Positions 4,488 through 63,767 of a DNA stretch of 64,000 bases are shown piece after piece. Origin of the DNA: a virus. The stretch spans positions 5,983 through 69,982 of the IMG/VR virus record IMGVR_UViG_3300047316_000072; one strand, given 5' to 3'. The notes below the pieces were generated by a model. It was not told where the DNA came from. It was given only the letters and a program-made list of their open reading frames with translations, and ran no database searches. Positions within the stretch are counted from its first letter, which is position 1. Every line of letters begins with the position of its first letter. The translations under genes and the position numbers were made by a program.

Positions 4488-4493
4488 CAACCC

Positions 4494-11316: not shown

Positions 11317-11318
11317 CA

Positions 11319-20659: not shown

Positions 20660-21377
20660 GAAGTTCCTCGTGTCCGAGATATTCGGACCCACGATCCAAG
20701 GCGAGGGCGCTCTCATTGGACAGACGAGTCACTTCATACGCTTCGCCGGGTGCTCTTACAGATGCTCTTGGTGCGACTCAATGCATGCTGTGGATCCGGA
20801 CCTCATACACAACAACTCCCAACGGCTGGACGAGGACGAGATACTAAACACACTCAGCAACTTACCAAACAGTGCTTATGCCAAATGGGTGACCCTCAGT
20901 GGAGGCGATCCTCTCCACTGGGAGCTCTACGAGCTGGTCAAAAGGCTCCAAGCCGACGACTTCATGGTGACTGTTGAAACACAGGGAGCGTTCTGGAAAG
21001 GCTGGCTACACAGCTGTGACAGAGTCACGTGTTCACCAAAGCCTCCAAGCTCGGGCATGTCATCCCAAATATCCTACCCTACACTAGACTGGTACTTGAC
21101 ATTGAGAGACAAGCTCAACTTCAAGGTCGTGATCTTCACAGAGGATGATCTTGACTTTGCTGAGCACATTCATCGCAAGTACCCCATGGTACGGCTGTTC
21201 CTCTCTGCAGGGACTCCTGTGATGCCGAGCGGCACCTCTCCGTTCCTCATGACCCACGAAGTCATGAAGAGCTACACGTGGCTTGTTGATGAAACGCTGA
21301 AACGTCCCGAGCTTGTCAACGCAACCACATTGCCACAGCTGCATGCTATGCTCTGGGGGAATCAGAAAGGGAAGTAA
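20652..21377 (+). CDS. queE: 7-carboxy-7-deazaguanine synthase (radical SAM)
   Basis: EIFGPTIQGEG, GCSYRCSWCDS, SGGDP, ETQG, SPKP, PQLH. Confidence 0.95.
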   Translation: MPEKFLVSEIFGPTIQGEGALIGQTSHFIRFAGCSYRCSWCDSMHAVDPDLIHNNSQRLDEDEILNTLSNLPNSAYAKWVTLSGGDPLHWELYELVKRLQADDFMVTVETQGAFWKGWLHSCDRVTCSPKPPSSGMSSQISYPTLDWYLTLRDKLNFKVVIFTEDDLDFAEHIHRKYPMVRLFLSAGTPVMPSGTSPFLMTHEVMKSYTWLVDETLKRPELVNATTLPQLHAMLWGNQKGK

Positions 21378-21387
21378 GGTGACCACT

Positions 21388-22008
21388 ATGGATGACGTAA
21401 ACATCACATTCACAACCCATCCGGGACCGGGAGTTCCTCGACACGGAGCCGAAGAGGACATTAGGTCACTGCTGAAGTTTGTCTACGGAGACAACCTCTC
21501 ACCGGAGGCTTATGAGAAGACTCCAAGAAGAGTACTCAGGTATCTGCAGGAGTTCAATCAGCCATTCTCAGCCTCAGAAATACTGGGCGAGATGTTTGAG
21601 GGTCCATCAGCCGAAGGTATCCACGGCCTTGTGGTGCAATCCAATATCCCCTTCAGGATGATGTGTGAGCACCATCTATTGCCTGCGACAGGGTCGGCCT
21701 TCTTAGGGTACATCCCCGATGGTAAGGTGGTAGGGCTCTCCAAGCTCGCCCGTCTTGTTGATGCTGTCAGTACCTCCAAACCCTCAATGCAAGAGCGCAT
21801 ATGCGAGACTATCGCGGATACTCTGAACGTGCATACCAAAGCCAAGGGCGTCATCTGCGTGATCGACTCGATGCACACCTGCATGGCGTGCCGAGGTATC
21901 AACACACCAGAAGTAGTTTCCACTACTTCCTGCGTACGCGGGGTATTCAGGGATGTCCCAGCTGCCCGGTCGGAGTTCTTCAGCATCATCAACCGCAACA
22001 GGAGGTAA
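21388..22008 (+). CDS. folE: GTP cyclohydrolase I
   Basis: TPRRV, CEHHLLP, GLSKLAR, QER, HTCM..RG. Confidence 0.95.
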   Translation: MDDVNITFTTHPGPGVPRHGAEEDIRSLLKFVYGDNLSPEAYEKTPRRVLRYLQEFNQPFSASEILGEMFEGPSAEGIHGLVVQSNIPFRMMCEHHLLPATGSAFLGYIPDGKVVGLSKLARLVDAVSTSKPSMQERICETIADTLNVHTKAKGVICVIDSMHTCMACRGINTPEVVSTTSCVRGVFRDVPAARSEFFSIINRNRR

Positions 22009-22017: not shown

Positions 22018-22200
22018 ATGAAGAGCGATCTGGTTGACATTAGCGGTGAGCTAGTAGTACCGTATGAGACCAAACTAGCCTACCACTTCTACGACGGTGC
22101 CAGAGAGGTCTGGTTGCCTAAGAGTCAGTGCGAGTGGGACGAGAACTCAAAGGAAATGACGATGCCCATGTGGCTCGCCAAAGAAAAGGAACTGATCTAG
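22018..22200 (+). CDS. small beta-rich hypothetical protein
   Basis: GGAGG SD; VWLPKSQ..MPMWLAKEKEL. Confidence 0.75.
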   Translation: MKSDLVDISGELVVPYETKLAYHFYDGAREVWLPKSQCEWDENSKEMTMPMWLAKEKELI

Positions 22201-22202
22201 TC

Positions 22203-23033
22203 ATGGCCCAGTTTGCTCCTGTAGCCCCACCACAAGTCCTACGGTCGCTCCGCGAGTTAGGTGAACAAGTTGTTGGACGGTATCATCTTCTGCTTGCTCA
22301 TGACGTCGTTGATAAGCCTCATGAATATAAGGATCTCCTACCCCGAGGTGCCTTTGTTATTATGGACAACTCTATCATTGAGCTTGGCCACCCTGTTGAT
22401 GCTCGTACAATGCGTCGCGCACTTGAGATCGTTCCTTCCAACGTCGTTGTACTCCCAGATGTGATCCGTGAGTTTGACTACACGTTGGAGCTGAGCTTTA
22501 CCGCTGCTGAGCAATACAGAGAGTTCATTGACTTCCACAAGACCACATACATGGCTGTACCACAGGGCACCACAATGGACGAGCTCATGAAGAGTGCGTG
22601 GGAGCTACGACACATCGAAGGCGTAGGCTGTTGGGGGATCCCTAGACACATCGTAGAGCTGCTGGGGTCGCGCATCGAATTCACGAGGTGGATCTGGGAT
22701 ACCCTTGATATGCACTTGGCGTATCGGAAGCACGGACCGTTTATCCATCTACTGGGGTTCAGCGACGATATGGAGGATGATCTGGAGTGCTGCCATCTGC
22801 CCGGGGTGTTAGGGATTGACTCAGCGGTCCCAATCCGTATGGGACAGCACCGTCAACAGATCAGCAAAGTACAGAAGACTCATGTACCACGGCTTGATTG
22901 GTGGGCCGGCGCCACATCCCACATCCATCCTGAGACTCTGGCCAACTTGATGTTAGTGCGGAATTGGACACAGTTCTCACCAGTACAAACATCTCGGAAG
23001 GATGCTGCCCTCCAGATTCCACATGCTTCTTAG
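22203..23033 (+). CDS. TGT/DpdA-like deazaguanine transglycosylase
   Basis: IMDNS..ELG, LPDV, AVPQG, IHLLG, GIDSA match TGT barrel motifs; follows queC-D-E-folE. Confidence 0.7.
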   Translation: MAQFAPVAPPQVLRSLRELGEQVVGRYHLLLAHDVVDKPHEYKDLLPRGAFVIMDNSIIELGHPVDARTMRRALEIVPSNVVVLPDVIREFDYTLELSFTAAEQYREFIDFHKTTYMAVPQGTTMDELMKSAWELRHIEGVGCWGIPRHIVELLGSRIEFTRWIWDTLDMHLAYRKHGPFIHLLGFSDDMEDDLECCHLPGVLGIDSAVPIRMGQHRQQISKVQKTHVPRLDWWAGATSHIHPETLANLMLVRNWTQFSPVQTSRKDAALQIPHAS

Positions 23034-25968: not shown

Positions 25969-28380
25969 TCAAGTACAGACCCATAACCAACCGTCTGACG
26001 AGACTGGAGCGGCCAAGCTGACCCAATGCTCGACAGAAACCTGCGTGACCGTCTCTCTTGTAGGGATCGAAGTAACTGTTGCCCAGTGCTCCAAGGACAC
26101 CTGAGTAAGTGCCTCAGCCGGCCGGACACCGCTTATGAGAAAGTGTTCTACGCTTACCTGCGTGACTGAAGCAATAGGCAGGCCTGCAGCCCAGTGTTCG
26201 ACTCCTACCTGTGTAACCTGATCCTGAGTAGCGGAGAGCGAGATTGCGCGAGGTCTGCTCTGAGTACCTGCCTGGACTCGAGCTAAGATGTCTGTGTAGG
26301 CAGATGTAAGTGTAGCTGTTCCACGAGCTTTGCTGCCCGCTCCTACACGGGCACGGATATCGGTATAACCCGACGGTACACTGACGATTACTTCAATGCC
26401 ACTGAAGGCACCAACCACTCCAGCATTATACGTCGCGACATACGAAGGCGTAGGGACCGAGCCTGGCTGAACGTCTCCTAGCCAGATCATGTTACCTGTG
26501 TTGGCGGAGCCTTGACCTACTAGTGTCGCAGGCGTGACAATCGTTCCACCACTTGTAGCACTCTGGTAAGTGACTAGAACATAATTGCTAGGACTAGCTG
26601 GAGTTGCGGGGAGTAGCGTAGCAGTAAAGGGAGATGACCCAGTACCTGCAGCAGTAAGTACCTGATCTAGCGTGACGCCAGAAGTATTGACAGCACGGAT
26701 ACAGACTGTAGAGGTAGTGGTGTTGACTGTGCCTGAATTGGTATAGACAGGGTCAGCATCGCCAGCTGCATAGATCTTAGTGAAGAGGTAGGCGCCATTG
26801 ATGAGAGCTGACCGGGTGTATCCTGCAGGTGTAGTGATAGTTGTACCTGCTGCAGGGATAGCGAAGGTGCAGACTAGGTCACCAGTACGTGCACCTAGAC
26901 GGCTGAGAGGGATTGTAGTACTGGCTACACTGCCCGTGGTACCATAAGCTGCACCCCAGGTAGCAGGTGTTGACTGAGGAGTTGCAACTGTGTCAGGAGC
27001 GTACTTGATGGCAATCTGTACGCCAGTGTAGAGAACACCACCAGTGCCTGACCAGGTTGCAAACTGATTCCCTGTTAGTCCAGTTCCTACAAGCGTTCTA
27101 TCGGCAGCAATAATCCCCTGACCGTTAGTGAATGCTCTCTGAACGAATCCTGTCGGTAATGTTGGCACACCTGGGAACGTAGTACTGATCATCCATATCC
27201 CAACCAGCTTGTCGTTGGGATACTTAGGAGCTACTGATGGAGCGTTGTAGTAACCAGCAAAGGTGCCGCTGGCAGCCTGAGAGGCTATGCAGTTATTGCT
27301 AACGTCGATAGGATTGGTCTGATCAACGTTGAAATACCTGAGCGCGCACGACGCCCATGTGTTACTAATGGTGGAGGTAAGTGTGATGCTAGTCGGATCG
27401 CCGGCTTGAACAAGCCTATAGATGGCTCCTTGACCATTGACGTTGAAGAGAGTAGTCCAGCCTGCCGGAGGCGTAACTACTGGACCTGGAACGGTTCCTA
27501 TAGCAACGGTCTGAGTGTAGCCGACAATGATTAGGTCACCAAGCACTCCTCCTGGTAGTGCGATGACGTTTGTTGTGGAGTTAGTTGTTGGTCCTAGTGT
27601 TGAACTGCGGAACTGGACACCCTCAACAGGGACCCATTCCTCGATCGAACTTTGCGTGACACGGGCATAGTTGAGAGCAGGGTCGATGATCCCCCACTCT
27701 TCAATGGACGACTGTGTGACAACGGCAGTTACGTTAGCATCTGAAGGAGCACCCCATTCCTCGATTGAGGACTGCGTAACGATGTTGCTAGTCGCTGGCC
27801 CCAGCCCTGATGTAAAGCCGCTAGTGAAGCCGGATGGGACAGTTCCACTGAACGCAGTGTCACCAAAGTTAGCTGTACATGCATCCGAGGCTGCCGAGAA
27901 TTCAGTTACTGGGAGGAAGCCAATAGGACCACCAGCTACAGTACCAACCGCGAGTCCTCCAACTCCGGTTGCAGGATTTGCAGTGCCGCTACCATTCCAG
28001 TTACCGGCAGGAGCAACTCGGATCCAGAGGAGTCCTGCGGACGCATCCAGCGCAAAGGACATAGTAGCGCCAGACGTAGTCCCAGTCAGTCCAGTAGCAA
28101 TCTGGGTCCCTGACCGATAGACTGTAGCGTTGTTAAATACCGCTACAAGATTGGTGGCGTTCCAAACGTTAGGAGTGGAGCTAGCATTAGTAAGGCCAAT
28201 GCCTGTGTTGCCGTTGACCCAGGCAGACATAAGAACTTCCCAGTAGAACTTTCCACTGGCGATGTTGTCTATAGTACGTACCCAGGCGCCTGCTCCAGAG
28301 GCGGTAGCAGTCAGATTGTTCGTACCGCTCAACGTAACGTTGGCGGTCTTATCCGTTGTACTCCAAGTGGTGTTGGCCAC
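25969..28380 (-). CDS. tail fibre/receptor-binding protein with SPRY-like N-terminal domain
   Basis: SGKFYWEV SPRY-like motif; T/G/S-rich; repeated VTQxxxExW motifs. Confidence 0.7.
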   Translation of the reverse strand: MANTTWSTTDKTANVTLSGTNNLTATASGAGAWVRTIDNIASGKFYWEVLMSAWVNGNTGIGLTNASSTPNVWNATNLVAVFNNATVYRSGTQIATGLTGTTSGATMSFALDASAGLLWIRVAPAGNWNGSGTANPATGVGGLAVGTVAGGPIGFLPVTEFSAASDACTANFGDTAFSGTVPSGFTSGFTSGLGPATSNIVTQSSIEEWGAPSDANVTAVVTQSSIEEWGIIDPALNYARVTQSSIEEWVPVEGVQFRSSTLGPTTNSTTNVIALPGGVLGDLIIVGYTQTVAIGTVPGPVVTPPAGWTTLFNVNGQGAIYRLVQAGDPTSITLTSTISNTWASCALRYFNVDQTNPIDVSNNCIASQAASGTFAGYYNAPSVAPKYPNDKLVGIWMISTTFPGVPTLPTGFVQRAFTNGQGIIAADRTLVGTGLTGNQFATWSGTGGVLYTGVQIAIKYAPDTVATPQSTPATWGAAYGTTGSVASTTIPLSRLGARTGDLVCTFAIPAAGTTITTPAGYTRSALINGAYLFTKIYAAGDADPVYTNSGTVNTTTSTVCIRAVNTSGVTLDQVLTAAGTGSSPFTATLLPATPASPSNYVLVTYQSATSGGTIVTPATLVGQGSANTGNMIWLGDVQPGSVPTPSYVATYNAGVVGAFSGIEVIVSVPSGYTDIRARVGAGSKARGTATLTSAYTDILARVQAGTQSRPRAISLSATQDQVTQVGVEHWAAGLPIASVTQVSVEHFLISGVRPAEALTQVSLEHWATVTSIPTRETVTQVSVEHWVSLAAPVSSDGWLWVCT

Positions 28381-35057: not shown

Positions 35058-35668
35058 TAGAGGTTCTCACTCCCACGCGACCGCCGTAGTGGTATTGGAT
35101 TATGCTCGCGCAAGCGTGCCCAAATGTCAAAGAACTTACGAGGACGGAGAGTCTTACCGTCCTTCATGAACTTCAGCCAAGGCTCATCAAGGCTTGCTAT
35201 GTAAGTAGTCTTGTGTGCCATTGAAGCCTGAACTACACGGGTCTTACTGATCATGATCCCACCATGACTGAAGCACCTGCCAAACCTCCAGCAGACTACG
35301 TCTCCCGCGCGTGGATGCTCCACTTCAACACCTACTGTCTGAAGCCATTCGAGGTACAGTTCTTCATCACGATGCAGGTGCCAGCTGGGCGAATATGGAC
35401 GTGGATCGAAAGGCTTTACTACGCCTGTATCAACCCAGCACCTCACTAGGATCATTGAACAGTCAATGCACCCGCTCGGCCCCTTGATGTCACCTTGCTG
35501 TAAGTAGGGCGTGCCAACCCAGCTCTTGGCTTCCTCCACAACCAACTCACGCTGGTACTCCTCCATCTCTAGAGTGAGCGGAAGCATCAAAGGCTCCATC
35601 GCCGGCAAATGCGGAGGCGGTTGTCCTTCTATCTTAGCTGTTCTGGGTGGTGCGATTCCAACGGCCAT
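35057..35668 (-). CDS. NlpC/P60 tail peptidase
   Basis: EAKSWVGTPY, DCS, GDVV, SHGGI. Confidence 0.9.
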   Translation of the reverse strand: MAVGIAPPRTAKIEGQPPPHLPAMEPLMLPLTLEMEEYQRELVVEEAKSWVGTPYLQQGDIKGPSGCIDCSMILVRCWVDTGVVKPFDPRPYSPSWHLHRDEELYLEWLQTVGVEVEHPRAGDVVCWRFGRCFSHGGIMISKTRVVQASMAHKTTYIASLDEPWLKFMKDGKTLRPRKFFDIWARLREHNPIPLRRSRGSENL

Positions 35669-38155: not shown

Positions 38156-39712
38156 TCACGTCTCCAGCTTGTAACCTATCTTGATGTTGTTGGCGCCTGA
38201 CACAGTCCAATTACTTCCTGTGTCAGGATCGAGTATATAGATGTCTGACGTGTAGAACCAGCTGGAGTTCAGAGTGAACACAGTACCTGCAGCGTCTGTT
38301 GCCCCGCTCCTAAGATGCTGAGTCATTGTATGTGGGTTGGCATCGTCCTTCTTGTACGCTCCAATCACCTGAATGCCGATGATGTTCAGAGTACTTGGAA
38401 TAGTGGAGTCACAATTGAACAGATCCTCTTGCCCTGGAGTGATCGACGTGTTGTATGTCATGTCCCCATCAAAGACTACTTCATTCACGTTCTGAGCGTT
38501 CATCGTGGAGATCATACCGATGCCGGGACTTCCAATCCCGTTATACGCACCACCTCCTGCTGCCGATGCTGGGAAAGACCCTGTGTATGCAACACCAAAC
38601 TGCTCAGCTGCTCTAACGTAGCTTACGTCACCAAAGCCTCCCAGAGATACACCCACGTCAGAATGAATAGCCGTCCAGTATACAGTACCTTTAACGATTG
38701 TCATCCCACTAATAGGTATGTATAAGTCTCCAGCAGTAGGATTCACTACTTCCGTCCCTTGGACTAGTAAGTTATCAGGGTTGCCTCCCGAGTCAGTGTA
38801 AAGAGCCGCGTTTATTCGAGCTATAGTATCTGTCATCACAAACACGTGGATGCTTGTAAGGGTACCAGTATGTGCAGCTCTCATCGCGACATAGTTAATG
38901 ACGTGGCTGCTCCCTCCTCCAGGTCCCCAGCTGCCTCCTGGAATGTATGGAGTGGCATAGTCAAAGTAGGGCATGTGAGGATTGGTCCACTGGACCGAAA
39001 AGTCAGATGACGGGTACAACGTTAGAGCTCGGGTGTCTCCTACCCATGAATTATTAGCGTAAGCACCTGGGTCTGAATCTGTAGTGCTATTGACGTGGAG
39101 ATCGTCGATCGTCGCATACCCTCCAGCTATGATAAACCTGTTGAATGACATAGCTGCAGGAGGAGTCGATGGAGGGTTTCCTGGATCGTGGAAGTTACCC
39201 GGAACGTCGATCATGCCTAGTATGGGCTGGTTGTTGATCCTGACGGAGACCTTACCGCCGCCTGCAGCCGATCCTACCGTAACCATGATCTCTAAGTAGA
39301 ACCATGAATTGGAGGCAAAGATTCCATTGACGGTGGAAGCTACTATGTGGTTCTGGTAGTCGGCAATGTAAATCTGGCCGCTCCCACCTGTGAACCCTAC
39401 AGTAGCTACGTTTCTTGGATTGGTAGGGTTACTAAAGGTATCCTGAAACTGTACTGACAGGTCTGTACTCACGCCCGTGTCCAGCTTTGCCGCGAAGCCT
39501 ACTACTCCTCCAGCAAGGTTCACATTGACATGACCGTAAAGGGATGCAATGCTCGACAAGTACAGAGCCTGCCCGTAATTGAATCTGGTGTCAGTACCAT
39601 CCACGAAGTTGCTAAAGCTGAAGCCTCCTGACCACTTCAGTCTCCCCTCGCGGAGGAGCATATCGTCAATGCTACCATAATGGTCAAAGCTTTCAAAGCA
39701 GATAAGGCTCAT
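38156..39712 (-). CDS. minor tail protein (paralog C)
   Basis: FESFDHY...DPDTGSNWT, similar to paralogs A and B. Confidence 0.7.
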   Translation of the reverse strand: MSLICFESFDHYGSIDDMLLREGRLKWSGGFSFSNFVDGTDTRFNYGQALYLSSIASLYGHVNVNLAGGVVGFAAKLDTGVSTDLSVQFQDTFSNPTNPRNVATVGFTGGSGQIYIADYQNHIVASTVNGIFASNSWFYLEIMVTVGSAAGGGKVSVRINNQPILGMIDVPGNFHDPGNPPSTPPAAMSFNRFIIAGGYATIDDLHVNSTTDSDPGAYANNSWVGDTRALTLYPSSDFSVQWTNPHMPYFDYATPYIPGGSWGPGGGSSHVINYVAMRAAHTGTLTSIHVFVMTDTIARINAALYTDSGGNPDNLLVQGTEVVNPTAGDLYIPISGMTIVKGTVYWTAIHSDVGVSLGGFGDVSYVRAAEQFGVAYTGSFPASAAGGGAYNGIGSPGIGMISTMNAQNVNEVVFDGDMTYNTSITPGQEDLFNCDSTIPSTLNIIGIQVIGAYKKDDANPHTMTQHLRSGATDAAGTVFTLNSSWFYTSDIYILDPDTGSNWTVSGANNIKIGYKLET

Positions 39713-42699: not shown

Positions 42700-42709
42700 C
42701 GTCTAACCC

Positions 42710-43413
42710 TTACCCTCTGACCACACCACCGTGTGCACTGATGAACTCGAACAACTCTTTGCCCCTGATAGCCTTAACAGCAGCACCGGTGCTCATGCCT
42801 ACAGATTTACCCTGCTCCCTCATGTGACCGAGGAAGCCATGACTAGCAGCGAGTATAACGCTAGCAGGAGGCACCTTCCGCCAGTACTCACGGAGCGACA
42901 TGAGCCTGGGAAGGGTGATCGATTCTTCAACACGATCCCAGTCCCCTCCACAGATCCCCAGCGCCGTCAGTTCGGCCGTAATGCTGTCCCAGTCTCCGTC
43001 GAAACCAACGGGGTCACTATCACTGGTGTCAGTATCTGACCCGCCGCCCCGTTCGGCGGGATCTCTTCCCCCGCGAGGAAGCCCGATATCCCGAGGTACT
43101 GATTGAATTTGTTCGTGAGGTCTTCGACTTGCTCACGCGTCATGTTGTCTTCTGCTTCCTGCACCTTGATGCCTGCAGCAGTACACAACAGCTCTACAAT
43201 AGCGTCGATCCGCTCTGTATGGATCTGCATGAACGCTTCATTGCCGGCTTTCTCAGCACTGCCAGCATCTCTGATCAGCTCCTGCATTCTGGTTGCTGCG
43301 TTGGTGATCTTAGGCAGCATTGCCCAGATCTTCTTCAGCATCTTCAGAGGTGCTGGCTTGATCTCGTACTTCTTTTCACCTACCTCTAGGATTAACGTGC
43401 TACTACCGCTCAT
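42710..43413 (-). CDS. tail assembly chaperone, -1 frameshift (gpGT-like) product
   Basis: GGGGGAA slippery site at 43066-43072; the -1 frame is open to 42710 and reads DWDSI..WDRVEESITLPRL..YW..PP. Confidence 0.8.
42967..43413 (-). CDS. tail assembly chaperone (gpG-like)
   Basis: AGGAG SD; lies between the tail tube and tape measure genes. Confidence 0.8.
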   Translation of the reverse strand: MSGSSTLILEVGEKKYEIKPAPLKMLKKIWAMLPKITNAATRMQELIRDAGSAEKAGNEAFMQIHTERIDAIVELLCTAAGIKVQEAEDNMTREQVEDLTNKFNQYLGISGFLAGEEIPPNGAAGQILTPVIVTPLVSTETGTALRPN

Positions 43414-52981: not shown

Positions 52982-54751
52982 TTATCTCCTCGCGGTACTA
53001 CTCGTAGTACCTGTTGCCCCGGGGGATGTAGGTTCCGCAAACTTCGGTGAGACACGTCCCTGTCCACCACCTCTAGGCTGACCGAATGCAAGTGGCTTAG
53101 GCTTGCCGTCGCCACTGCCTGCATCAGAGCTATCGTCTCCGCCATCGCCTGGAGGTTGAGCTGCTGCACCTGCTGCTGCCACGTCCAGTGGATTCTGGCT
53201 AATTGGCACATAGCCGCTAGTGGTAGCGAGCATAGGCTCCTCTGCAGCTCCTCCCACGGGCAGTTTGCCTCTAGCCTTCCGGACCTCATCAATAGCGTAG
53301 ATCCCTGACTTGACGTATCCAGTGTCAATCTCCATCTGGGCCTTCGGATCCTGCTCGCGGTCTTCTAGGAAGACAAACTCCAGTTCAGGATGCTTCAGGT
53401 CAAAACGGATAATCATATCCATCAGACCCTTCCACCAGCGCTGAGAAGGGATAAGACCCTCTTCCAGCGCACGCGACCGCGCAGTGCCAGCAGTAGCACG
53501 ATTGAGATGAGTAACAAACGGCTCAGGAGAGATTGAGAAGATGAAGCAGATGACCCGCGCCAACCATTCATCGTAGTCATCCTTGAGAGGCGGCTCCTTC
53601 GTCTCCACGTACTTGAACTGACCGGGCATGAACCGCACCTTACGGCGATTCATGAGGTTACCTGACATCAATCCGTCAAACCAGCTTTGAAAGTCACGGA
53701 TGTTTTGTATGTTCCAGGCTTCTGGCAGTCCCACGAATGCGTCGGGAGTGCTTCCGGCCAGGTAGTAGTCGAGCTGGTAGACAGCCCTTCTGATAGCCGT
53801 GTTAACCGTGACAACAACCTGCTCAACTGGAGACAGACCATAGACCCGGTCACTACGGATATTGCGAGGCATATAAAGGAGCTCACTAGCAGTGTAGTCG
53901 GCTGCAGGTACTCCATGAAGTATTTGTTGGTAAGAAGGCTCACCAGGATCAGTAGGACGACGACCTGTAGCATCAAGGAGAGGGAAGATAGTAGCACCAT
54001 CAATAGGCTCCAGCGCATACAGCTCTCCTCCGCGCGTCTGCCGCCTGTAGAGGCATGCCGCATCAATTACAAACATGTCCTCATTTACACAGCGCATCCA
54101 CTGATCCCACGTATGCTCCTTGTCAGGATACATGAGGAAGTCAGTTACTTCCCGGATGTCCTTCTTGGTCTTGTCGGGCAACTCCAGTGTATTCAGTTCG
54201 CTACGCTGTACGGACGGCTGCTTGTTACCGCTAGGGATGCCAAACTTTGGACCGTTGGACTGTCCGTTAGGAGGACCTCCGTTGCCCCCTCCGTTCCCGT
54301 TCTTTGTAGGAGGGAATGCTTTGGTTGAGAAGGTTGTAGTACCAGGATCGCCCGAGTGCTCCTCAGGAGCCCCCTCTTCTCCAAGCGCTTCTCGCGGCCT
54401 GATTGCCCAATCTAATGCTGCGATTTGGTCCTTGCGCGCCTCAATTACGCCTCTTAAAATGTCACAGTTCTGAGCTAGAGCTCTCAGGTCGGCGAATGAG
54501 ATGGCCTCCTGAGTACGAGGGTTGTAGTTGAGGTTGTAGCCTGTCTGATAGTCGAACCGTCTCCCTTTAACACCGGCATCTTCGCCCTGATCTGCAAACG
54601 GCTGGAGAGGTTGCCATGGACCGAACCAGTTGTTTGGACCTACGCCACTTACTACAAAGCGCGTAGCAGCCTTCACACGCTGTACAAAGCTTGGTACAAC
54701 GGGAACAATTTGCCCTGTTGGGCCGTTAGGACCTACTGGAAGACTCGGCAC
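52982..54751 (-). CDS. portal protein
   Basis: IDGATI, YGLSPVE, DEWLARVICF.F, IDEVR..RG..P. Confidence 0.9.
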   Translation of the reverse strand: MPSLPVGPNGPTGQIVPVVPSFVQRVKAATRFVVSGVGPNNWFGPWQPLQPFADQGEDAGVKGRRFDYQTGYNLNYNPRTQEAISFADLRALAQNCDILRGVIEARKDQIAALDWAIRPREALGEEGAPEEHSGDPGTTTFSTKAFPPTKNGNGGGNGGPPNGQSNGPKFGIPSGNKQPSVQRSELNTLELPDKTKKDIREVTDFLMYPDKEHTWDQWMRCVNEDMFVIDAACLYRRQTRGGELYALEPIDGATIFPLLDATGRRPTDPGEPSYQQILHGVPAADYTASELLYMPRNIRSDRVYGLSPVEQVVVTVNTAIRRAVYQLDYYLAGSTPDAFVGLPEAWNIQNIRDFQSWFDGLMSGNLMNRRKVRFMPGQFKYVETKEPPLKDDYDEWLARVICFIFSISPEPFVTHLNRATAGTARSRALEEGLIPSQRWWKGLMDMIIRFDLKHPELEFVFLEDREQDPKAQMEIDTGYVKSGIYAIDEVRKARGKLPVGGAAEEPMLATTSGYVPISQNPLDVAAAGAAAQPPGDGGDDSSDAGSGDGKPKPLAFGQPRGGGQGRVSPKFAEPTSPGATGTTSSTARR

Positions 54752-56914: not shown

Positions 56915-57154
56915 TTAGCTGTTGCCTAGATTGCGTACGATTAACCCGCCTGTCGGGTCGCAAACTAGATCTTCCAGGTTTTCACTGAACTGTTCGAACT
57001 CACGTAAGCTCAGCGGTCGTCCGTCCTTGAAGGCCTCTCTCATTGCATGCCAGGCCTTCAATCCAGTGATGTTGCCTCCCAGTGCTGCGTCAACCACAAT
57101 CACAACCTGCTCAGTAGTGACGCAACCATGCATGTTATCTGTCCCTATACACAT
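56915..57154 (-). CDS. hypothetical protein
   Basis: Fills the gap in the late operon. Confidence 0.45.
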   Translation of the reverse strand: MCIGTDNMHGCVTTEQVVIVVDAALGGNITGLKAWHAMREAFKDGRPLSLREFEQFSENLEDLVCDPTGGLIVRNLGNS

Positions 57155-59171
57155 CTAGCGGTGAAGGGGCAGGATTTGTGTTAGGGACGTAGGGACCTCG
57201 AATGGTTTGCCTAGCCCGTTCGCGTGCAGCAGCCTCCGCACGTTTGAGTTCATCTTGGTAGAACATGAGGAATCCCTGACCTGGGATCGCCGGCTGTGCA
57301 AACGCGTTCACAACAGCGTCACCTTTGTCAGGAGATCTCCCAAGCCTGTCCTTGACCTTCTTCTTCTCCTCTACCTGGATTCCACGGGCAGACAGAGCCC
57401 AACGAGGAGCAGCAAGATCAGCAGCCAGTTCGCTATCGGGAGGCAGAGCAATCTCCAGACCAAGTTGCGGATCCAGAGCCTCTCTAAATAGCCAAAACCA
57501 CTCACTGCGCGAATTCGCGAACTGTAACGACCCCGACCGGTCCGTCGCAACTGACTTATCCGCCCCGTTCATTGCCACAACTTCGATGCCCTTGAGCTTC
57601 CCCACGTCGACGGGGGACGATCCGACCCCGACGACATCGATCTTGATTCGCCAGTCTCGGAAGCCGAATTCGATGATCTTGTCAATGACAGCTGGACCAT
57701 CAGGAGTATCAGCGCCAGATACAAGACGAAGACTAGCAAACCAACTACCACGTCTCTCGCTAAAGACCGTCTTGTCACGGCCACCACGAGACACGTCAAC
57801 GCCCACATCCCTACTACCAGGTAGGTCAGTATCGAAGCCTTTAGTGATGTCCAGATTCCCGTAGGCATTGTAGTTGAGCTTCTTCTGGTCACCACTGAAC
57901 AGCTGGGATGTGTCTACACCTACTCCTGCCTGCTTGAAGAACTCCTCAAGGTTCCTAGGGACGGGCTTAGGGATGTCAATATCGGGTAAGTCGTCTGGCC
58001 TGAGCGCTTTCTTCGACTTCTCCTCTCCTTCCTCATTCATTTTGGTCTCAGAAGGGTCCGGCATCTCATCGCCGTTTAAACGGGGTGAGAACTCATGTCT
58101 CGGCGCTCGTGCGCGCATCGCGTCCAGGGGGTCTTCCGCGATGGTTGTGCTTACAGCTTCAAGGTCTTTCCGCTTAATCAGCTTAAGCAGGTACTCCTCA
58201 TAAGTCGGAGCCCATCGACTTTGCGCAGCGAGGATCCAGTTAGTCGGGATTACTTGCCACTCATCGTCGTCATCGCCTACTCCAAAGTCCCCTTGCAACA
58301 TGCGGCTACGCAGTGGCTCGGGGAGACTTTGCAAGATACTGATATACCCGCTTTGCATCAGGTACGGGTTATCTTGGATCCTTGCTCGTATAAAACTACG
58401 ACTGCGCGGGAAGATCTCCGTTTCAATGTTGTTGATGGTCATGAAGATGGGGTCGGAACCACTCACTTCGACGTCATCGCCCTGGTTATTGGTGATGAAC
58501 CACCTCAGCTCGCCGGGCTTTGCAGGGTTGGGATGGTCAGGACGGAGCCATGGTGCCCAGTAGTCAACTACCCAAGCTCCCTCGGCCGAGGTCGGGGGGT
58601 TACCTGCAGCGATTACACGGGTCTTGAAGTATTGTCCCGTCTCAGGGTTGATCTTAGTAGTCCGGTTCCATCCAGTGAGGAACTTGTACTGCTTCTTTGT
58701 GAAGTGCGTGATCTCGTCAAACGCTTTCAGGTCATGAGCACGTCCCTGGTACTTCTGCTCATCACCTTCAAACTGACAGGCACCGAGCTCGATGGAACGC
58801 CCATCCTTGAAGCGCCATACCCAGTCTTGAGCGTTATAACGTCCTCCAGCGTTCTCCGTGTAGATCTCGCTGGCCCTATCACGGATACCCTTCAATTGCT
58901 GGAACTCACGGCGGAAGATGATTGTCCTCCAGTGGTTCTGGATAGCAGTCCCTAACAGCAAGTCCGTCTTGCCACCGCCTGCGGCACCTCCATAGAAGAG
59001 CTCATCGGCTTGGCTTTCATACGCCATAGTCTGTGGCCCTGGCAACGGAGTCCATGTTGGGACTGCGATGTCAACCAGCAAGCTGTCTATCTCGTACAGC
59101 TCGCTAGGCGTCAGGTACTGGAGGAGATCTTGGAGATCGCTGGCTCCACGAGGGTCGTTGCTAATCGCCAC
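57135..59171 (-). CDS. terL: terminase large subunit
   Basis: YGGAAGGGKT, FDE, NPP, NPYL, GVDVSRGG.D, SPDKGDA; GTG start after GAAAGGAGG. Confidence 0.92.
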   Translation of the reverse strand: MAISNDPRGASDLQDLLQYLTPSELYEIDSLLVDIAVPTWTPLPGPQTMAYESQADELFYGGAAGGGKTDLLLGTAIQNHWRTIIFRREFQQLKGIRDRASEIYTENAGGRYNAQDWVWRFKDGRSIELGACQFEGDEQKYQGRAHDLKAFDEITHFTKKQYKFLTGWNRTTKINPETGQYFKTRVIAAGNPPTSAEGAWVVDYWAPWLRPDHPNPAKPGELRWFITNNQGDDVEVSGSDPIFMTINNIETEIFPRSRSFIRARIQDNPYLMQSGYISILQSLPEPLRSRMLQGDFGVGDDDDEWQVIPTNWILAAQSRWAPTYEEYLLKLIKRKDLEAVSTTIAEDPLDAMRARAPRHEFSPRLNGDEMPDPSETKMNEEGEEKSKKALRPDDLPDIDIPKPVPRNLEEFFKQAGVGVDTSQLFSGDQKKLNYNAYGNLDITKGFDTDLPGSRDVGVDVSRGGRDKTVFSERRGSWFASLRLVSGADTPDGPAVIDKIIEFGFRDWRIKIDVVGVGSSPVDVGKLKGIEVVAMNGADKSVATDRSGSLQFANSRSEWFWLFREALDPQLGLEIALPPDSELAADLAAPRWALSARGIQVEEKKKVKDRLGRSPDKGDAVVNAFAQPAIPGQGFLMFYQDELKRAEAAARERARQTIRGPYVPNTNPAPSPLDVYRDR

Positions 59172-60537
59172 TGCTGGCCTCCTTTCGCGCCCTCGCCTTG
59201 TCAAGGAGGATAGCTAGCCGTCGCGTCCGGTCTTGTGGGTCCATTTGTTGTGAGTTCGGCACACCATCAGCGCGGTCCACTGTAGAGCCATGAGTACGAG
59301 CTGGTTTGTTCTCCCTTTGTGATTGGTTAGCCAGGTACCTTACATTAGTACCTAGTAGGCTTTCGAGGTTTGATGGTTGATTGGGGATGAGCCCTATGGA
59401 CACACGCTGGAGCTCCGTCACAAGCTTCAGGAGCTCAATGGCGGATCGTCCCGTCAAGCGCTCCCAGAAACGGGGGGTCCCGTCTTCCGTAAGGAAGTAC
59501 GGTCTGAAATCGGGCGAGCTCGTGTCAGGGTTAATGTACTGGATGATTTTTGCGTATAGTCGTGCTGCGTCCGAGTGGTGGGTGTTCTCGAGCTGGAGGG
59601 CCAGCATTTCCCGGGACTTGCGGATGCTGTCGATATAGAACAGATCATGAGCGCGAGCACGGAACTCCCAATGGTATAGGTAATACCACTCCACAAATTC
59701 CTCATGTAGTACCGCGTGGGGGGAGTCAGTAAGTTCATCGTTAGTTGCAGGTATGAAGGAGCTTCCATCGAGGGGCCCTACCAGATTAGCTGCACGTTCG
59801 CTCTTAGCGCCTGGGACTACGTTCGGGTACCATTTATGCCCATCCCGCTCGAGCTGCGAGATGTTATTGCTCGTTTGGATACGGTGCTGGATAATCTTGG
59901 CCTGAGTGTTCGGGTTCCGGCTGAGCGTGAAGAGCTGACGGCGCCCCTGTGTGCCCTGCTCAATGTAGGATTGGAAGCCCAAGTAGGAGTCGTGTGGCTC
60001 ACACGGGAGCTTTTGCCAGAATGGACGGCCATCAGGCTGCGTCGGGTACCCCTCATCATAGTTGAGAGGGACATAGGACGCTTGAATGTGACGGTGATTG
60101 AGGACGATGTTAGGAAGACGATAATCGTCCGTTATGGGTTGTTTTGATTGGGTTACTTCCCTTTCCGGCTCTTGTGGGGCTTCTGGGCCTTGCTCGTCTT
60201 CACGATGTGGGTTGTTGTTGAGCTGCGGGTCTTCCTTGGGGATCTTTTGCCTCTGGTTCCTCTGGACATCCTGTGCTCCGCTTGAGTGAGTGAGTTGGTA
60301 GTTGGAGAGCGCTTCCTGGAGAGTTGATGCCCCAGTTAGATCGTGTAGTTCATCTTGGGTTTGAGGGGACTTGTAATGCTTAAAGGCGAGATTAGGATCA
60401 ATGAGATCTGAGCGGTGATAGCCTTCTGGAAGGTTCAGGTGATTGATAGGCAAGAAGTTAGCAGCCTCACGCATGATCTCAGCACGCGTGGGGAGACGAT
60501 TCCAATAGTTCGTGTCGGTAGGTGTACTAGTTGACAT
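59161..60537 (-). CDS. putative terminase small subunit-like protein
   Basis: First late gene, upstream of terL; WQKLPCE..Y..F..Y and W..RARAHD motifs. Confidence 0.55.
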   Translation of the reverse strand: MSTSTPTDTNYWNRLPTRAEIMREAANFLPINHLNLPEGYHRSDLIDPNLAFKHYKSPQTQDELHDLTGASTLQEALSNYQLTHSSGAQDVQRNQRQKIPKEDPQLNNNPHREDEQGPEAPQEPEREVTQSKQPITDDYRLPNIVLNHRHIQASYVPLNYDEGYPTQPDGRPFWQKLPCEPHDSYLGFQSYIEQGTQGRRQLFTLSRNPNTQAKIIQHRIQTSNNISQLERDGHKWYPNVVPGAKSERAANLVGPLDGSSFIPATNDELTDSPHAVLHEEFVEWYYLYHWEFRARAHDLFYIDSIRKSREMLALQLENTHHSDAARLYAKIIQYINPDTSSPDFRPYFLTEDGTPRFWERLTGRSAIELLKLVTELQRVSIGLIPNQPSNLESLLGTNVRYLANQSQRENKPARTHGSTVDRADGVPNSQQMDPQDRTRRLAILLDKARARKEASSGD

Positions 60538-60561
60538 GTCCTTAGGGTATTATTTGGATCA

Positions 60562-60591
60562 ATTATACTCTTTGGAACATGGGGGAATCAA
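60562..60591 (-). promoter_or_regulatory. promoter of the virion operon
   Basis: TTGATT-N18-TATAAT on the - strand, 24 nt before the 60537 start. Confidence 0.7.
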
Positions 60592-60836
60592 GAGGGTTTT
60601 TTATTACATTTTTTTCATGTTAAGTACACCTGGGCCACCGTGTTTGCGCTACCTTAGCCATTTTGGTTGGGGCGTCCATGCGCGGCATTTTCGGATAAAA
60701 AGAAGGGATTTTTTAACATTAAATTCCTTAATTCACCAAATTTTAATAAAATAGTGGGGGATTATGACCACGTACCGGTATATAAATATATATTGGTAAT
60801 TAATAGTTATTACCAATAAAGAGAAAGGTTACTAAA

Positions 60837-61031
60837 ATGAGTTACGAAATCGATTATGAGATCCCCGTTACCGAAAAGGATATTAATTCAGAAATGATTA
60901 ATATGACCACAATGAGTTCAAAAATTAGATATCTACACCAAAAAGGATTTACAAGGACCCAAATTAGTAAAACACTTAATATTCGGTACCAGTGGGTCAG
61001 AAATGTTTTGATCACACCAATAAAGAATTAA
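60837..61031 (+). CDS. small HTH protein, copy 1 (GpC-free, alanine-free)
   Basis: TMSSKIRYLHQKGFTRTQISKTLNIRYQWVRNVL; own AT-rich promoter region and terminator. Confidence 0.85.
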   Translation: MSYEIDYEIPVTEKDINSEMINMTTMSSKIRYLHQKGFTRTQISKTLNIRYQWVRNVLITPIKN

Positions 61032-61038
61032 AAAAGGT

Positions 61039-61072
61039 AGGGTGTAACCGAAAGGTTACACCCTTACTTTTT
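61039..61072 (+). terminator. rho-independent terminator
   Basis: AGGGTGTAACC-GAAA-GGTTACACCCT + TACTTTTT. Confidence 0.85.
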
Positions 61073-61099
61073 ACCTACCTAATTTCATTTTTGAGATTG

Positions 61100-61320
61100 C
61101 GGTGTTGCCCCCCGGGGCGCCCGCGGGGGCCAGAGGGCCCCTACCGGGGGGCCCGAAAAGGCCCGGGCGTAGAGGGCCCGGCCCTGTAAAGCCCGGGGTG
61201 GGCCCGAGAAAGCCTGGGCCATAAATGGCCCTGGGCCCGGTAAAGCCCGGGGGGCCCTAGAAAGCCCGGGGGCCCGGGCGGGGCCCGGTTACCTCCGGCC
61301 CGGTCCGCCTCGGAGCGCCA
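61100..61320. repeat. GC-rich low-complexity GGGCCC/CCCGGG spacer
   Basis: About 14 GGCC; AAAGCCCGGGG three times. Confidence 0.8.
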
Positions 61321-61472
61321 AACCAAAAAATCATGGTTGGCCCGTGCAGGACCTGGGGACCGATCGAGGAGACTGTTCCCATCGGGGACCGTGCGAGGAC
61401 TATTCATTAAAAATTGTTAATAATTAAATCGTTGTAGTCCAATAGGACAACGCGCTATAATATATTTGTAAG
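61305..61472 (+). promoter_or_regulatory. duplicated upstream/promoter module A
   Basis: Shares exact TCATTAAAAATTGTTAATAATT and TATAATATATTTGTAAG with 61861-62020; TTGTAG-N18-TATAAT. Confidence 0.8.
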
Positions 61473-61508
61473 TTAATAATGACTTACACGTACACAAGGA
61501 ACCGCACG

Positions 61509-61706
61509 ATGTCCGACTACAACGTAGACTATGAAGTCCCCGTTACCGCAGCGTCCGTAAAGGACGAAGTCGCGGGCCTTACGACGATGTCCGCAAAGAT
61601 CCGGTATCTTGCCGGTAAGGGTATGTCGCGTGCCGACATCGCACGTACCCTTAATATCCGGTATCAGTGGGTACGTAACGTCCTGATTACGCCTGTCAAG
61701 GGCTGA
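61509..61706 (+). CDS. small HTH protein, copy 2
   Basis: TMSAKIRYLAGKGMSRADIARTLNIRYQWVRNVL; AAGGA SD. Confidence 0.85.
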   Translation: MSDYNVDYEVPVTAASVKDEVAGLTTMSAKIRYLAGKGMSRADIARTLNIRYQWVRNVLITPVKG

Positions 61707-61713
61707 AAGGAAT

Positions 61714-61741
61714 GGGGCGCCGTAAGGCGCCCTTTTCTTTT
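61714..61741 (+). terminator. rho-independent terminator
   Basis: GGGCGCC-GTAA-GGCGCCC + TTTTCTTTT. Confidence 0.85.
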
Positions 61742-61860
61742 AACACGTTAGGCCCGGGCGGGACCGGTCATAGGCGGCCAAGGATACGTCCGCAAACGGG
61801 GGGGACCGGTACGGACCGGGCAGGACCGGGCTGGCAAGCCCATAAGAGTTAAGGCCCGGG

Positions 61861-62020
61861 CCGCCTCGGACGCGCAAAAAACTGATCCATGGTTTGTCCG
61901 TACAGGACTAAAAATAGCGATCGAGCAGACTGTTGGACCGTGAGGAATAATCATTAAAAATTGTTAATAATTTTGACTATAGATTTGACCGAGGACCAGC
62001 AAATATAATATATTTGTAAG
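61861..62020 (+). promoter_or_regulatory. duplicated upstream/promoter module B
   Basis: Imperfect repeat of module A; TTTTGACTA-TAGATT-N18-TATAAT. Confidence 0.8.
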
Positions 62021-62064
62021 ATGGCAATAACGCCAGATTACAAATAGACCAAAGGACAAAGACT

Positions 62065-62379
62065 ATGAACAAGACCAACGCACTGACCATCACCCAGACG
62101 GGCGAAGTGGTCCCCGAGCCGTTCGTTCAGCCCACCGACACCGCAGTCGGACAGTTGATCGAGGCGTTCGTACCGAAGCCTGCAGCGCCTGACGTCCACG
62201 GTATCGTCTGGAGCGAGACCATGAACACGTCCCAGAAGATCAAGGCGCTCGCGGCCGCTGGTTACAAGAATGCCTCGATCCAGAAGATCCTGAACCCCTG
62301 GTATGAGGCGAAGAACGGACGAGCGCTCCGCTACCAACACGTGCGTAACGTCCTGACTCAGACCTACAAGAAGGCCTGA
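62065..62379 (+). CDS. small HTH protein, copy 3 (divergent)
   Basis: TSQKIKALAAAGYKNASIQKILN...LRYQHVRNVL. Confidence 0.8.
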   Translation: MNKTNALTITQTGEVVPEPFVQPTDTAVGQLIEAFVPKPAAPDVHGIVWSETMNTSQKIKALAAAGYKNASIQKILNPWYEAKNGRALRYQHVRNVLTQTYKKA

Positions 62380-62391
62380 GTACAAGGGCGA

Positions 62392-62421
62392 GGGGAGGTC
62401 GAAAGACCTCCCCGTTCCTTT
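62392..62421 (+). terminator. hairpin terminator
   Basis: GGGGAGGTC-GAAA-GACCTCCCC + GTTCCTTT. Confidence 0.7.
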
Positions 62422-62443
62422 AACAGTCAAAGGACAATGTAAG

Positions 62444-62668
62444 ATGTCAGTACCAACCGAAATGGTTACGATCGAGAAGATCCAGGAGCTGCCGGCAGGT
62501 TATATCAAGGAGTACCTGATCGAGGCGCTCCACGGTAGCCTGGATGGTAACACGGAGGAACAGAAGGATGCGATCCTGCACTTCCTGGCAGATATGATCC
62601 AGTACGTCGAGCAGGTCGCCTATGAGGATAAGCACTTCCCGTACCCTGGTGAGGAGTTCGAGGCGTAA
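62444..62668 (+). CDS. small acidic protein
   Basis: AAGGA SD, 74 aa, D/E-rich. Confidence 0.7.
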   Translation: MSVPTEMVTIEKIQELPAGYIKEYLIEALHGSLDGNTEEQKDAILHFLADMIQYVEQVAYEDKHFPYPGEEFEA

Positions 62669-62763
62669 TGGGCTACTTGTGCATCGCTTGGTTGCTCGTG
62701 TTCCTCGCAGGCTACTATTTCATGTGGCAGTCATACTGGGATAGCCGTAAGGACAGAGACTAA
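62668..62763 (+). CDS. 31-aa membrane peptide
   Basis: TAATG coupling; MGYLCIAWLLVFLAGYYFMWQSYWDSRKDRD. Confidence 0.55.
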   Translation: MGYLCIAWLLVFLAGYYFMWQSYWDSRKDRD

Positions 62764-62769
62764 GAGGGA

Positions 62770-62794
62770 AGGGCGCGCAAGCGCCCTTTTCCTT
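62770..62794 (+). terminator. rho-independent terminator
   Basis: AGGGCGC-GCAA-GCGCCCT + TTTCCTT. Confidence 0.8.
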
Positions 62795-63377
62795 GTCTTA
62801 AACTGGCCCGGGCCCGGTCGGGACTAGTCTAACCTGTTAAGCCGTCCCCGGACCGGTCATGACTAGTCGCAATCGCGGGACCGCGAGGGAACCGTGTTAA
62901 CCAAGGTCCCTCTGGATTAGGCGACCGTGCGGACCATGCGACGGACATGCAGCACATGTTTTGCTGAACGAGTAGACCATCACGTCCGCTAAACGGGGGC
63001 AGAACTCATGTCGGGGGACCCGTTTCCTCACGTGCGTTGCCACTCTTTCTCGTTCCTACAAATAACCTATTGAAGTCCTATGGTGCATGACGAGAGTTGA
63101 TAAGTTGATAGATGATCTCTCTATATCTATACCTCTCTATAAGGCATATACGTATATGTCTATTCCTACCGGTCCAACCGTCTATAAGGAACACATAGTA
63201 TCTCTTGAATAGAACTCTTAGACTAGATCAAACTAAACACTAGTAATAACTAGAAGGAATTCAATAGGTTACAATAAGGAACTACAATTACATCCAACTA
63301 GCATATCAAAGCCCAATCATACTATTATACGAGCCAGACATGTAGGGCCGCCTGATCATTAACAAAATTTAATGGAC

Positions 63378-63425
63378 CGACCCCAATTTTGACACTAGAT
63401 TGACCATATGACCGTATTATATAAT
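63378..63425 (+). promoter_or_regulatory. phage promoter family member
   Basis: CGACCCCAATTTTGACAC-TAGATT-N18-TATAAT. Confidence 0.8.
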
Positions 63426-63497
63426 ACTCATAATAATAAGTAGGGTACCTACAAACAACCACTCCTACCAACTCCAACATGAAAGTACAATACCAAC

Positions 63498-63767
63498 ATG
63501 TCTATAGGATCTACTCCAGAACATCTCGAGCGGCTCGAGAAGAGAGATGTCATCGTCGAACATATCATGCAGTTCGTCATGAATGATCCCACGGTCGCTG
63601 ACTGGATCTTCAGTCAAGTCACTCCCTTGAAGATCCTACCGAACTTCGCAACGGACGAAGAGGTAGAGGCATATGAACAGAGCCCCGAATACCGCCTATA
63701 CTGGTCCCAGATCACCATGTACACCATGCAGTTACTGAGCCTAGTGGCCAGTAAGATGCACGCCTGA
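63498..63767 (+). CDS. hypothetical protein
   Basis: 89-aa ORF after the promoter, followed by a hairpin. Confidence 0.65.
   Translation: MSIGSTPEHLERLEKRDVIVEHIMQFVMNDPTVADWIFSQVTPLKILPNFATDEEVEAYEQSPEYRLYWSQITMYTMQLLSLVASKMHA

Follow-up and report, generated by a model that had tools for sequence, protein, structure and literature searches.

The 64,000-nucleotide (nt) stretch of viral DNA considered here, called the window, comprises bases 5983-69982 of the 69,982-bp record IMGVR_UViG_3300047316_000072 and belongs to a siphovirus-like phage. Its structural operon and a set of rightward small genes diverge at 60537/60837, and the rightward set opens with three paralogous helix-turn-helix (HTH) genes on the plus strand, namely copy 1 (60837-61031; 64 amino acids (aa), none of them alanine), copy 2 (61509-61706; seven alanines and 11 GpC dinucleotides) and copy 3 (62065-62379; 104 aa, 13 alanines and 23 GpC). 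Copy 1 shares 61% identity with copy 2 and 36% with copy 3. Every copy has its own promoter and its own terminator (61039-61064, 61714-61733 and 62392-62413 for copies 1, 2 and 3, respectively), and the cassettes are separated by the G/C-rich repeat arrays that follow each of them (61100-61320, 61740-61870 and 62800-62990). The subject of this work is the copy 1 cassette, which lies within a run of DNA devoid of the dinucleotide GC and for which copy 2 serves as a within-genome control.

The extent of this run (60686-61099) is that of one predicted transcription unit, consisting of a promoter, a 5' hairpin, the HTH gene and a terminator. For copy 1, a TATA-rich -10 region that the consensus scan did not call (60779-60792, plus strand) is inferred from alignment with the TATAAT elements of its two paralogs. 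The promoters of copies 2 and 3 share an identical 17-mer containing TATAAT at 61456 and 62004, the promoter of copy 2 spanning 61456-61472. Just 3' of the -10 region lies a palindrome or hairpin (60795-60814, plus strand), which could be a stem in the 5' untranslated region (UTR) or an operator. A palindrome directly follows the -10 region at each HTH promoter (e.g., 61473-61492 for copy 2), its position being kept and its sequence differing between the paralogs and in relatives, and it may be an operator bound by the cognate protein or a stabiliser of the 5' end. The intrinsic terminator of copy 1 (61039-61073, plus strand) is composed of an 11-bp stem (61039-61064) and a subsequent T-run. 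Its stem contains G-runs, C-runs and six G-C pairs and still no GpC, unlike the GpC-rich terminator stem of copy 2 at 61714-61733 and the stem at 62766-62791, which are built on GGCGCC and GCGCGC; the latter ends the copy 3 cassette, which includes two small additional open reading frames (ORFs). A preliminary description of the locus had pointed to this difference between the stems, as well as to the replacement of all seven alanines of copy 2 by E, K, I, S, H, T and S in copy 1, and both are borne out, the latter by the alignment of the two copies. The copy 1 protein is modelled by AlphaFold2 (AF2) as four helices (predicted local distance difference test, pLDDT, 84), and a Foldseek search with this model returned weak matches to the HTH domains of LuxR, sigma region 4 and resolvases (E 0.14-1) and none at E <= 0.001. 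Comparison of the HTH proteins with Pfam, PHROG, NCBIfam and the PDB sequence profiles gave sub-threshold or irrelevant matches, so that no family is assigned.

The GpC-free run is confirmed and measures 414 nt, from the GC at 60685/6 to the GC at 61099/100, and since GC is its own reverse complement, it is free of GpC on both strands. No dinucleotide of the 16 has a longer gap in the window, the next being 268 nt for TT and 252 nt for AA, while the next longest GC gaps measure 180, 157 and 148 nt. With a composition of 164 A, 125 T, 66 G and 59 C, the run would be expected to contain 9.4 GC and 9.4 CG, and contains 0 and 9, respectively; GG (20 observed, 10.5 expected) and CC (20 observed, 8.4 expected) are abundant, and 27 GA and 12 TC are present as well. 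The hand count of the preliminary description (roughly 67 G and 58 C, about nine GpC expected and about nine CpG found) was thus close to the exact values. A complete lack of GC was seen in 4 of 200,000 mononucleotide shuffles of the region (2e-5). When the whole window was shuffled inside blocks of 100 or 200 nt, which keeps the local composition (400 shuffles each), a GpC-free run of at least 414 nt arose in 0/400 and 0/400 cases, with maxima of 322 and 295 nt, and any of the 16 dinucleotides reached this length in 0/400 and 2/400. GpC-free runs of 400 bp or more, which the preliminary description had named as grounds for doubt if common, are therefore not common under this composition-matched null.

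The borders of the run are sharp. On the right, the first repeat array (61100-61320), built of GGGCCC/AAAGCCCGGG units with 12 GpC per 100 nt, starts exactly where the run ends, and on the left the run is bordered by a GC-rich island of about 50 nt with eight GpC in the divergent intergenic region (60634-60685). This island is partly conserved in the related loci L004 and L005 (CCAGGCGCGGCATTTTC core) and is flanked on its other side by a further GpC-free stretch of 148 nt (60486-60634). The second and third longest GpC-free runs of the window (180 and 157 nt) are found further right (63144-63530), where the next rightward operon has its A+T-rich promoter region. The arrays of relatives are built of other short units, such as ATAWATGTCCC in L012.

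Taken alone, the window provides evidence of moderate strength, and an explanation without any selection on GpC has to be weighed against it, namely that the run arose by chance in an A+T-rich island, came from a donor of low G+C content or reflects recoding against recombination between the paralogs. The cassette has a G+C content of 30% in a genome of 52.7%, as this explanation would predict. Resampling of synonymous codons with the alanine-free protein held fixed leaves 2.0 GpC expected in the ORF (P=0.12), which is a null of weak power once that protein is fixed, and the deficit in the ORF is hence achieved mainly via the choice of amino acids. When gaps are ranked by the expected count inside them, corrected for the genome-wide observed/expected ratio (O/E), the run comes first in its own genome by a narrow lead only (8.9, followed by 8.5, 8.5, 8.1 and 8.0; the maxima of related genomes are 8-11), and a scan of fixed 300-nt windows does not place it in the top four for depletion. 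On the other side stand the block shuffles, none of which (0/800) reaches 414 nt for GC, the undepleted CpG and the terminators, which are G/C-rich and GpC-free. Low G+C content alone is insufficient, as the preliminary description had argued, with CpG at expectation in the run and the purge present at normal G+C in relatives.

It is the relatives that provide what we regard as the decisive evidence for a purge. An IMG/VR search with the three HTH copies yielded 58 loci and, including the window, a set of 96 distinct copies, in which all 16 dinucleotides were scored over the interval that starts 100 nt ahead of the HTH domain and ends 60 nt past the stop codon. The HTH genes of these relatives mostly occur as two to four tandem cassettes. 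Among the 23 depleted cassettes with the lowest P, 15 lack GC and five lack CC, the others lacking TG, TA and CG (one each), and 19 of the 20 GC- or CC-purged cassettes in this group are the copy most similar to copy 1. GpC-free runs reach 477 nt in L012 (none found, with 11.7 or 14.2 expected in two counts), 500 nt in L033 (0 of 7.2 expected, with the end of the locus cutting the run), 329 nt in L006 and 319 nt in L024 (17.3 expected), where the adjoining HTH gene has 52% G+C and two GpC (11.2 expected). The G+C content of purged cassettes ranges from 32% to 52%, with L012, L024, L026 and L030 at 45-52%. In three of 15 whole related genomes the purged zone is top-ranked and clearly above background (scores of 18.7 in G005, 12.0 in G002 and, for CC, 22.4 in G015).

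The 14 genes of the GC type have a median identity of 53% at the nucleotide level and 31% at third positions, and fall into 13 clusters at 80% identity. Pooled, their gene bodies contain 19 GpC where 98.8 are expected and 107 CpG where 98.8 are expected, whereas the other 74 copies contain 995 GpC with 980.8 expected (O/E 1.01). The purge continues into the 50 nt past the stop codon, that is, into the terminators, where the GC-type pool has four GpC with 33.6 expected, compared with a baseline ratio of 0.68; the window, L004 and L005 have terminators of different sequence, all of them G/C-rich and made of G-runs and C-runs without GpC. The purged proteins drop alanines that are conserved in the family (SAKIR becoming SSKIR and IAK becoming ISK), and six of them are alanine-free. 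Because third positions are saturated, G+C is normal in some cassettes and CpG is undepleted, neither descent nor A+T richness accounts for this pattern. The gap thus recurs in homologous cassettes of related phages as GC or CC type. Together with the spread of the purge over 13 sequence clusters, some of them with cassettes at 45-52% G+C, this leaves the explanation by chance or foreign origin, already disfavoured, as very improbable.

In the cassettes of the second type (L058 and, near positions 3900-4500 of the loci, L007, L049, L047, L056, L042, L055 and L016), it is CC that is missing from, or rare on, the coding strand. The most extended example is L058, where 780 nt (3772-4551) are free of CC with 24.1 expected, and where the HTH protein lacks proline, the conserved ITPxK being changed to VADLAK; in the CC-type cassettes proline is absent or reduced to one. 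Pooled over the eight cassettes, the coding strand contains 10 CC with 60.6 expected (0.16) and 37 GG with 71.4 expected (0.52), at baselines of 0.82 for CC and 0.80 for GG, and in L049 and L047 both dinucleotides are depleted.

Taken together, the recurrence, the normal G+C content and the inclusion of UTRs and terminators support selection that acts on nucleic acid and not on protein or G+C content. The preliminary description had proposed selection on the DNA itself; the nucleic-acid level of this proposal stands, while the choice between DNA and RNA differs between the readings discussed below. At this level, the purge tracks the predicted transcription unit. The pooled GpC O/E falls from 0.97 at -150 to -100 to 0.18 and returns to 0.81 beyond +50 after the stop codon, a profile whose edges are partly circular, since the set was chosen on -100 to +60. 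The promoters of L006, L026, L031 and L034 have GpC at about -12 to -50, the nearest standing at about -12 to -15, and none follows from the -10 region or start onward until past the terminator. That GpC is tolerated in promoters argues against simple interference with promoter recognition and fits a cause at the level of the transcript as well.

Such a cause could be immunity of the RNA, in which a transcript without the dinucleotide recognised by a host toxin, either an endoribonuclease or an RNA-modifying enzyme, would stay translated during the attack, and lineages with different hosts would purge GC or CC. The match between purge and transcribed part, in these four loci and in the pooled profile, is what this explanation predicts, as is the strand asymmetry of the CC type (0.16 for coding CC and 0.52 for GG). 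Moreover, the 3' arm of a terminator-like hairpin in L058 avoids CC via G-U pairs, which we read as functional in RNA only. Precedent for a dinucleotide-specific attack on mRNA is given by CmdT, which is reported to ADP-ribosylate the adenine of GA dinucleotides in mRNA (PMC11618068; PMC12945103). On the other hand, GG on the coding strand is also below baseline in the CC type (37 found and, at a ratio of 0.80, about 57 expected), which a cause acting on RNA alone does not explain, and the GpC that remain in purged cassettes are not confined to a tolerated context like GCG or GCC. We know of no toxin specific for GC or CC, and no search for one was made. Overall, protection of the transcript appears unlikely, though it is the most serious of the competing explanations.

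A different source of a dinucleotide constraint is found in the genome itself. The window encodes a gene set for the synthesis of preQ0, namely QueC (19204-19908), QueD (20117-20659), QueE (20580-21377) and FolE (21313-22008), all on the plus strand, with a Pfam match for QueC (167 bits) and PHROG matches for QueC, QueD, QueE and GTP cyclohydrolase. Between FolE and the DNA polymerase lies a gene on the plus strand (22128-23033) for a protein with a predicted tRNA-guanine transglycosylase (TGT) fold, which is DpdA-like. Its AF2 model has a pLDDT of 92.9, and all listed Foldseek matches in the PDB are tRNA-guanine or archaeosine transglycosylases (E ~2e-7, template modelling score ~0.6), while at the sequence level no match was obtained in Pfam (including TGT, PF01702, and DpdA, PF23859), NCBIfam or the PDB. 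The protein has 473 relatives; of the 120 listed, two carry the Joint Genome Institute (JGI) name queuine/archaeosine tRNA-ribosyltransferase. Both QueC and the TGT-fold protein are encoded in 15 of 15 long related contigs. Comparison of the genome with Pfam gave no C5 or N4/N6 methyltransferase match.

The known DpdA enzymes of phages exchange G for preQ0 in very short sequence contexts of two or three nucleotides and do so at almost all such sites, the motif of phage iggy being GA, with about 97% of the sites modified (PMC10484667), and the contexts of phage CAjan being GA and GGC (PMC7544227). The present phage resembles these Queuovirinae systems in its FolE/QueD/QueE/QueC set, in the TGT-fold enzyme between FolE and the polymerase, and in a syntenic replication module (ligase, helicase, exonuclease, Sak4, Que genes and polymerase); the avoided element is likewise a G-containing dinucleotide of the size of a DpdA target. 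It differs from iggy and CAjan in that the enzyme is dissimilar in sequence and the implied motifs are GC and GG, compared with the published GA and GGC.

Iggy, for which the motif is known, provided a positive control: among its symmetric intervals free of a dinucleotide, GA/TC accounts for five of the six least probable ones (expected counts of 10-14.4). Its right-terminal 603 bp (MN029011 60026-60628; L116:10026-10628) contain four GA with 39.1 expected and eight TC with 34.7 expected, and four further GA/TC-free patches (27694-27854, 42700-42870, 39300-39456 and 3179-3286) dominate the list of improbable gaps. Iggy thus shows purging of its own motif in non-coding DNA and on both strands, which speaks against protection of a transcript. 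Side by side with this, the scan of CAjan (NC_028776) revealed a strand-specific TC-free run (39243-39484; 15.4 expected) and two CC-free runs (53608-53923 and 35142-35392; 13.2 and 12.7 expected), one of these patches covering small plus-strand early genes. Term searches in the main texts of the iggy and CAjan papers yielded no passage on a motif-free gene or zone, a result that does not extend to the supplements, which possibly hold motif maps, and a literature search over titles and the starts of abstracts, within the collection and terms used, found neither a dinucleotide-free phage gene nor a zone free of a modification motif.

The reading that we favour, tentatively and at somewhat less than even chances, is that the copy 1 unit is kept free of the target of the phage's own deazaguanine modification. 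The phage would make preQ0, and the TGT-fold transglycosylase, which occupies the position of DpdA in Queuovirinae, would insert it; members of this enzyme family would act on 5'-GC-3' here, and on 5'-GG-3' where the cassette lacks CC/GG. The purged unit would then stay ordinary DNA within an otherwise modified genome, so that the host RNA polymerase could read it from the injected, modified DNA, and it would be no substrate for host enzymes that attack 7-deazaguanine DNA. Two reports bear on these steps: on 7-vinyl- and 7-ethynyl-7-deazaguanine templates, transcription by bacterial RNA polymerase is nearly abolished in vitro (PMC4838386), and phage DNA containing 7-deazaguanine is fragmented by the host glycosylases Dag1 and Dag2, to an extent proportional to its density of modification (bioRxiv 10.1101/2025.10.29.685425). 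Damage on the template strand would block transcription most, and the stronger loss of CC from the coding strand fits such a dominance of the template strand. Four steps of this reading are inferred: the action of the enzyme on DNA, GC as its motif, harm from modification to the expression of the unit, and the time at which the unit is expressed.

An own-mark explanation was one of two offered in the preliminary description, with the GA and GGC contexts of CAjan in mind. The idea has gained from the preQ0 pathway, the TGT-fold enzyme and the iggy control and is the best reading at present, while those contexts themselves do not fit: the cassette contains 27 GA and 12 TC, and the enzyme shows no detectable similarity in sequence to the DpdA of iggy or CAjan, so that a new GC specificity would be needed.

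Several observations weigh against this reading and have to be set beside it. The action of the enzyme on DNA and its target motif are predictions, and, as noted, its sequence does not resemble that of the DpdA of iggy or CAjan. A tree of the enzymes (16 rows, long branches) does not sort the purge types cleanly, as it pairs G005, of the GC type, with G009, which has no purge, and G015, of the CC type, with G011. This comparison could not be widened to five shorter CC-type contigs, as none of them (0 of 5) includes the enzyme gene. The cassette is unpurged in five of 16 whole genomes despite the presence of the enzyme. Within the window, copies 2 and 3 share the promoter type of copy 1 and are full of GpC, hence modification would not be generally incompatible with expression. 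The GpC tolerated in the promoters of the four loci named above, and the narrow lead of the run in its own genome, belong here too. Finally, the terminal zone of iggy is repeat-rich and non-coding, and its poverty in GA and TC may partly reflect a small repeat vocabulary for this reason, and CAjan shows no clear symmetric GA/TC-free zone in our scan.

The other option in the preliminary description, that the cassette avoids a DNA-targeting defence of the host, would involve a frequently cutting restriction or nicking enzyme or a CRISPR protospacer adjacent motif (PAM) such as CC/GG, with at least one redundant HTH paralog surviving entry. Motifs specific to each lineage could follow the hosts, and the three to four paralogous cassettes per phage would suit bet-hedging. 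A further argument came from copy 2, whose cassette (61396-61847) had been described as lacking GAG/CTC. It does so over 452 nt with 17.1 expected, ranking first among the trinucleotide classes in the genome. The gap is, however, not conserved in the copy 2 cassettes of L004, L006, L009 and L013, which have 8-11 GAG/CTC with 11-13 expected, and it lies within the background maxima of 12-17, so that we treat it as unproven. The trinucleotide scans otherwise mostly re-found subsets of GC or CC/GG. Against avoidance of a host nuclease it counts that the target is not under-represented across the genome (GpC O/E 0.95), so that cutting elsewhere would still kill the phage, and that the genome-wide ratios of 4-bp palindromes (0.77-1.25) show no split between sites with GC and other sites. 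Recognition of a duplex also misfits the strand asymmetry of CC and GG, and nothing places the gene first on entry, as the record has no defined ends and the direct terminal repeats of relatives do not define physical ends. No bacterial nuclease with a bare dinucleotide specificity is known to us, and no search for one was made. Altogether we consider this explanation improbable, less so than chance or foreign origin and more so than a transcript-level toxin. The probability that remains goes to causes that we have not thought of.

Avoidance of restriction sites or other short motifs is familiar from phage genomes, examples being palindrome avoidance and the early region of T7 with Ocr. As in restriction-site avoidance, short words are removed here at the expense of coding freedom. 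The difference lies in scale and cost: a single unit of about 400 nt is affected and not the genome, the word is a bare dinucleotide, and alanine is lost, or proline in the CC-type relatives. Messages resistant to toxins are a second parallel, as ACA-less mRNAs escape MazF and GCU-less mRNAs escape MqsR. The likeness consists in a transcript that would escape a word-specific RNA toxin by lacking a word of 2-3 nt, and in a purge that follows the transcription unit; unlike in these messages, coding-strand GG is also depleted in the CC-type cassettes, and the phage family has a predicted DNA modifier of its own at the dinucleotide scale, which would be a simpler source of the constraint. The gene itself recalls the autorepressors of the Aca type, small phage HTH regulators behind strong early promoters. 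It shares with them a short HTH protein, a strong-looking promoter of its own, a palindrome at the start of the transcript and its own terminator, and differs in having no family assignment, in lying beside repeat arrays and in occurring as two to four tandem paralogs.

The remainder of the genome provides the setting. The structural genes, among them the portal (52982-54751) and the large terminase (57135-59204), are on the minus strand, whereas the replication module, with ligase, helicase, exonuclease, a Sak4-like protein and DNA polymerase A, is on the plus strand. Contigs bearing the stretch originate from metagenomes of soil and rhizosphere; none of the 13 sequencing runs listed for it is an RNA run, and a variant of the copy 1 cassette with about 90% identity was seen in contigs of four DNA runs. 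A search of 60300-63000 of the window against INPHARED by blastn, in modes for near and for distant matches, gave no match; the source record is linear and showed no repeats at its ends. In its early region, ahead of the window, the genome encodes a fourth member of the HTH family (L062:2748-3020, genome positions 2748-3020). Two proteins (1422-2180 and 2191-2943) have PEP-CTERM-like sorting signals at their ends (NCBIfam/Pfam scores below or close to the cut-off), which hints at a host with exosortase. A 447-aa protein (11271-12614) combines an N-terminal zinc ribbon resembling Lar, of the restriction alleviation family (below the cut-off), with a weak DUF6884 match. Among the related genomes, G013, to which locus L053 belongs, is depleted of CpG throughout (O/E 0.55, the other 15 genomes ranging from 0.73 to 1.08) and, unlike them, has several stretches of 300-415 nt with no CpG. 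A GG-free patch in L054 (genome G014) was set aside as a candidate cassette purge, as it lies on the coding strand of a neighbouring 377-aa gene and its pattern differs.

What appears to be novel is the avoidance of a motif that is local, dinucleotide-scale, switched between lineages and so strong that a protein loses an amino acid. As a generalisation, which we put forward with a little more reserve than the reading for this phage, deazaguanine phages may keep modification-exempt units from which the target word of their own DpdA has been recoded away, an amino acid being given up where necessary, so that the missing word would reveal the specificity, which is GA for iggy (known) and predicted to be GC and GG for the deeply divergent TGT-fold family described here. 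If the purged word is indeed the phage's own target, the specificity of DpdA enzymes would be predictable from genomes without mass spectrometry or nanopore sequencing, hypermodification would have a cost that phages handle gene by gene, and modification, transcription of the incoming DNA and the host glycosylases that attack 7-deazaguanine would be connected. If a dinucleotide-specific defence against RNA or DNA is responsible instead, the cassettes would point to toxins of soil bacteria, so far undescribed, that are specific for GC and CC. Under any of these causes, a protein family that repeatedly loses alanine or proline represents an unusually clean case of selection on nucleic acid prevailing over protein sequence.

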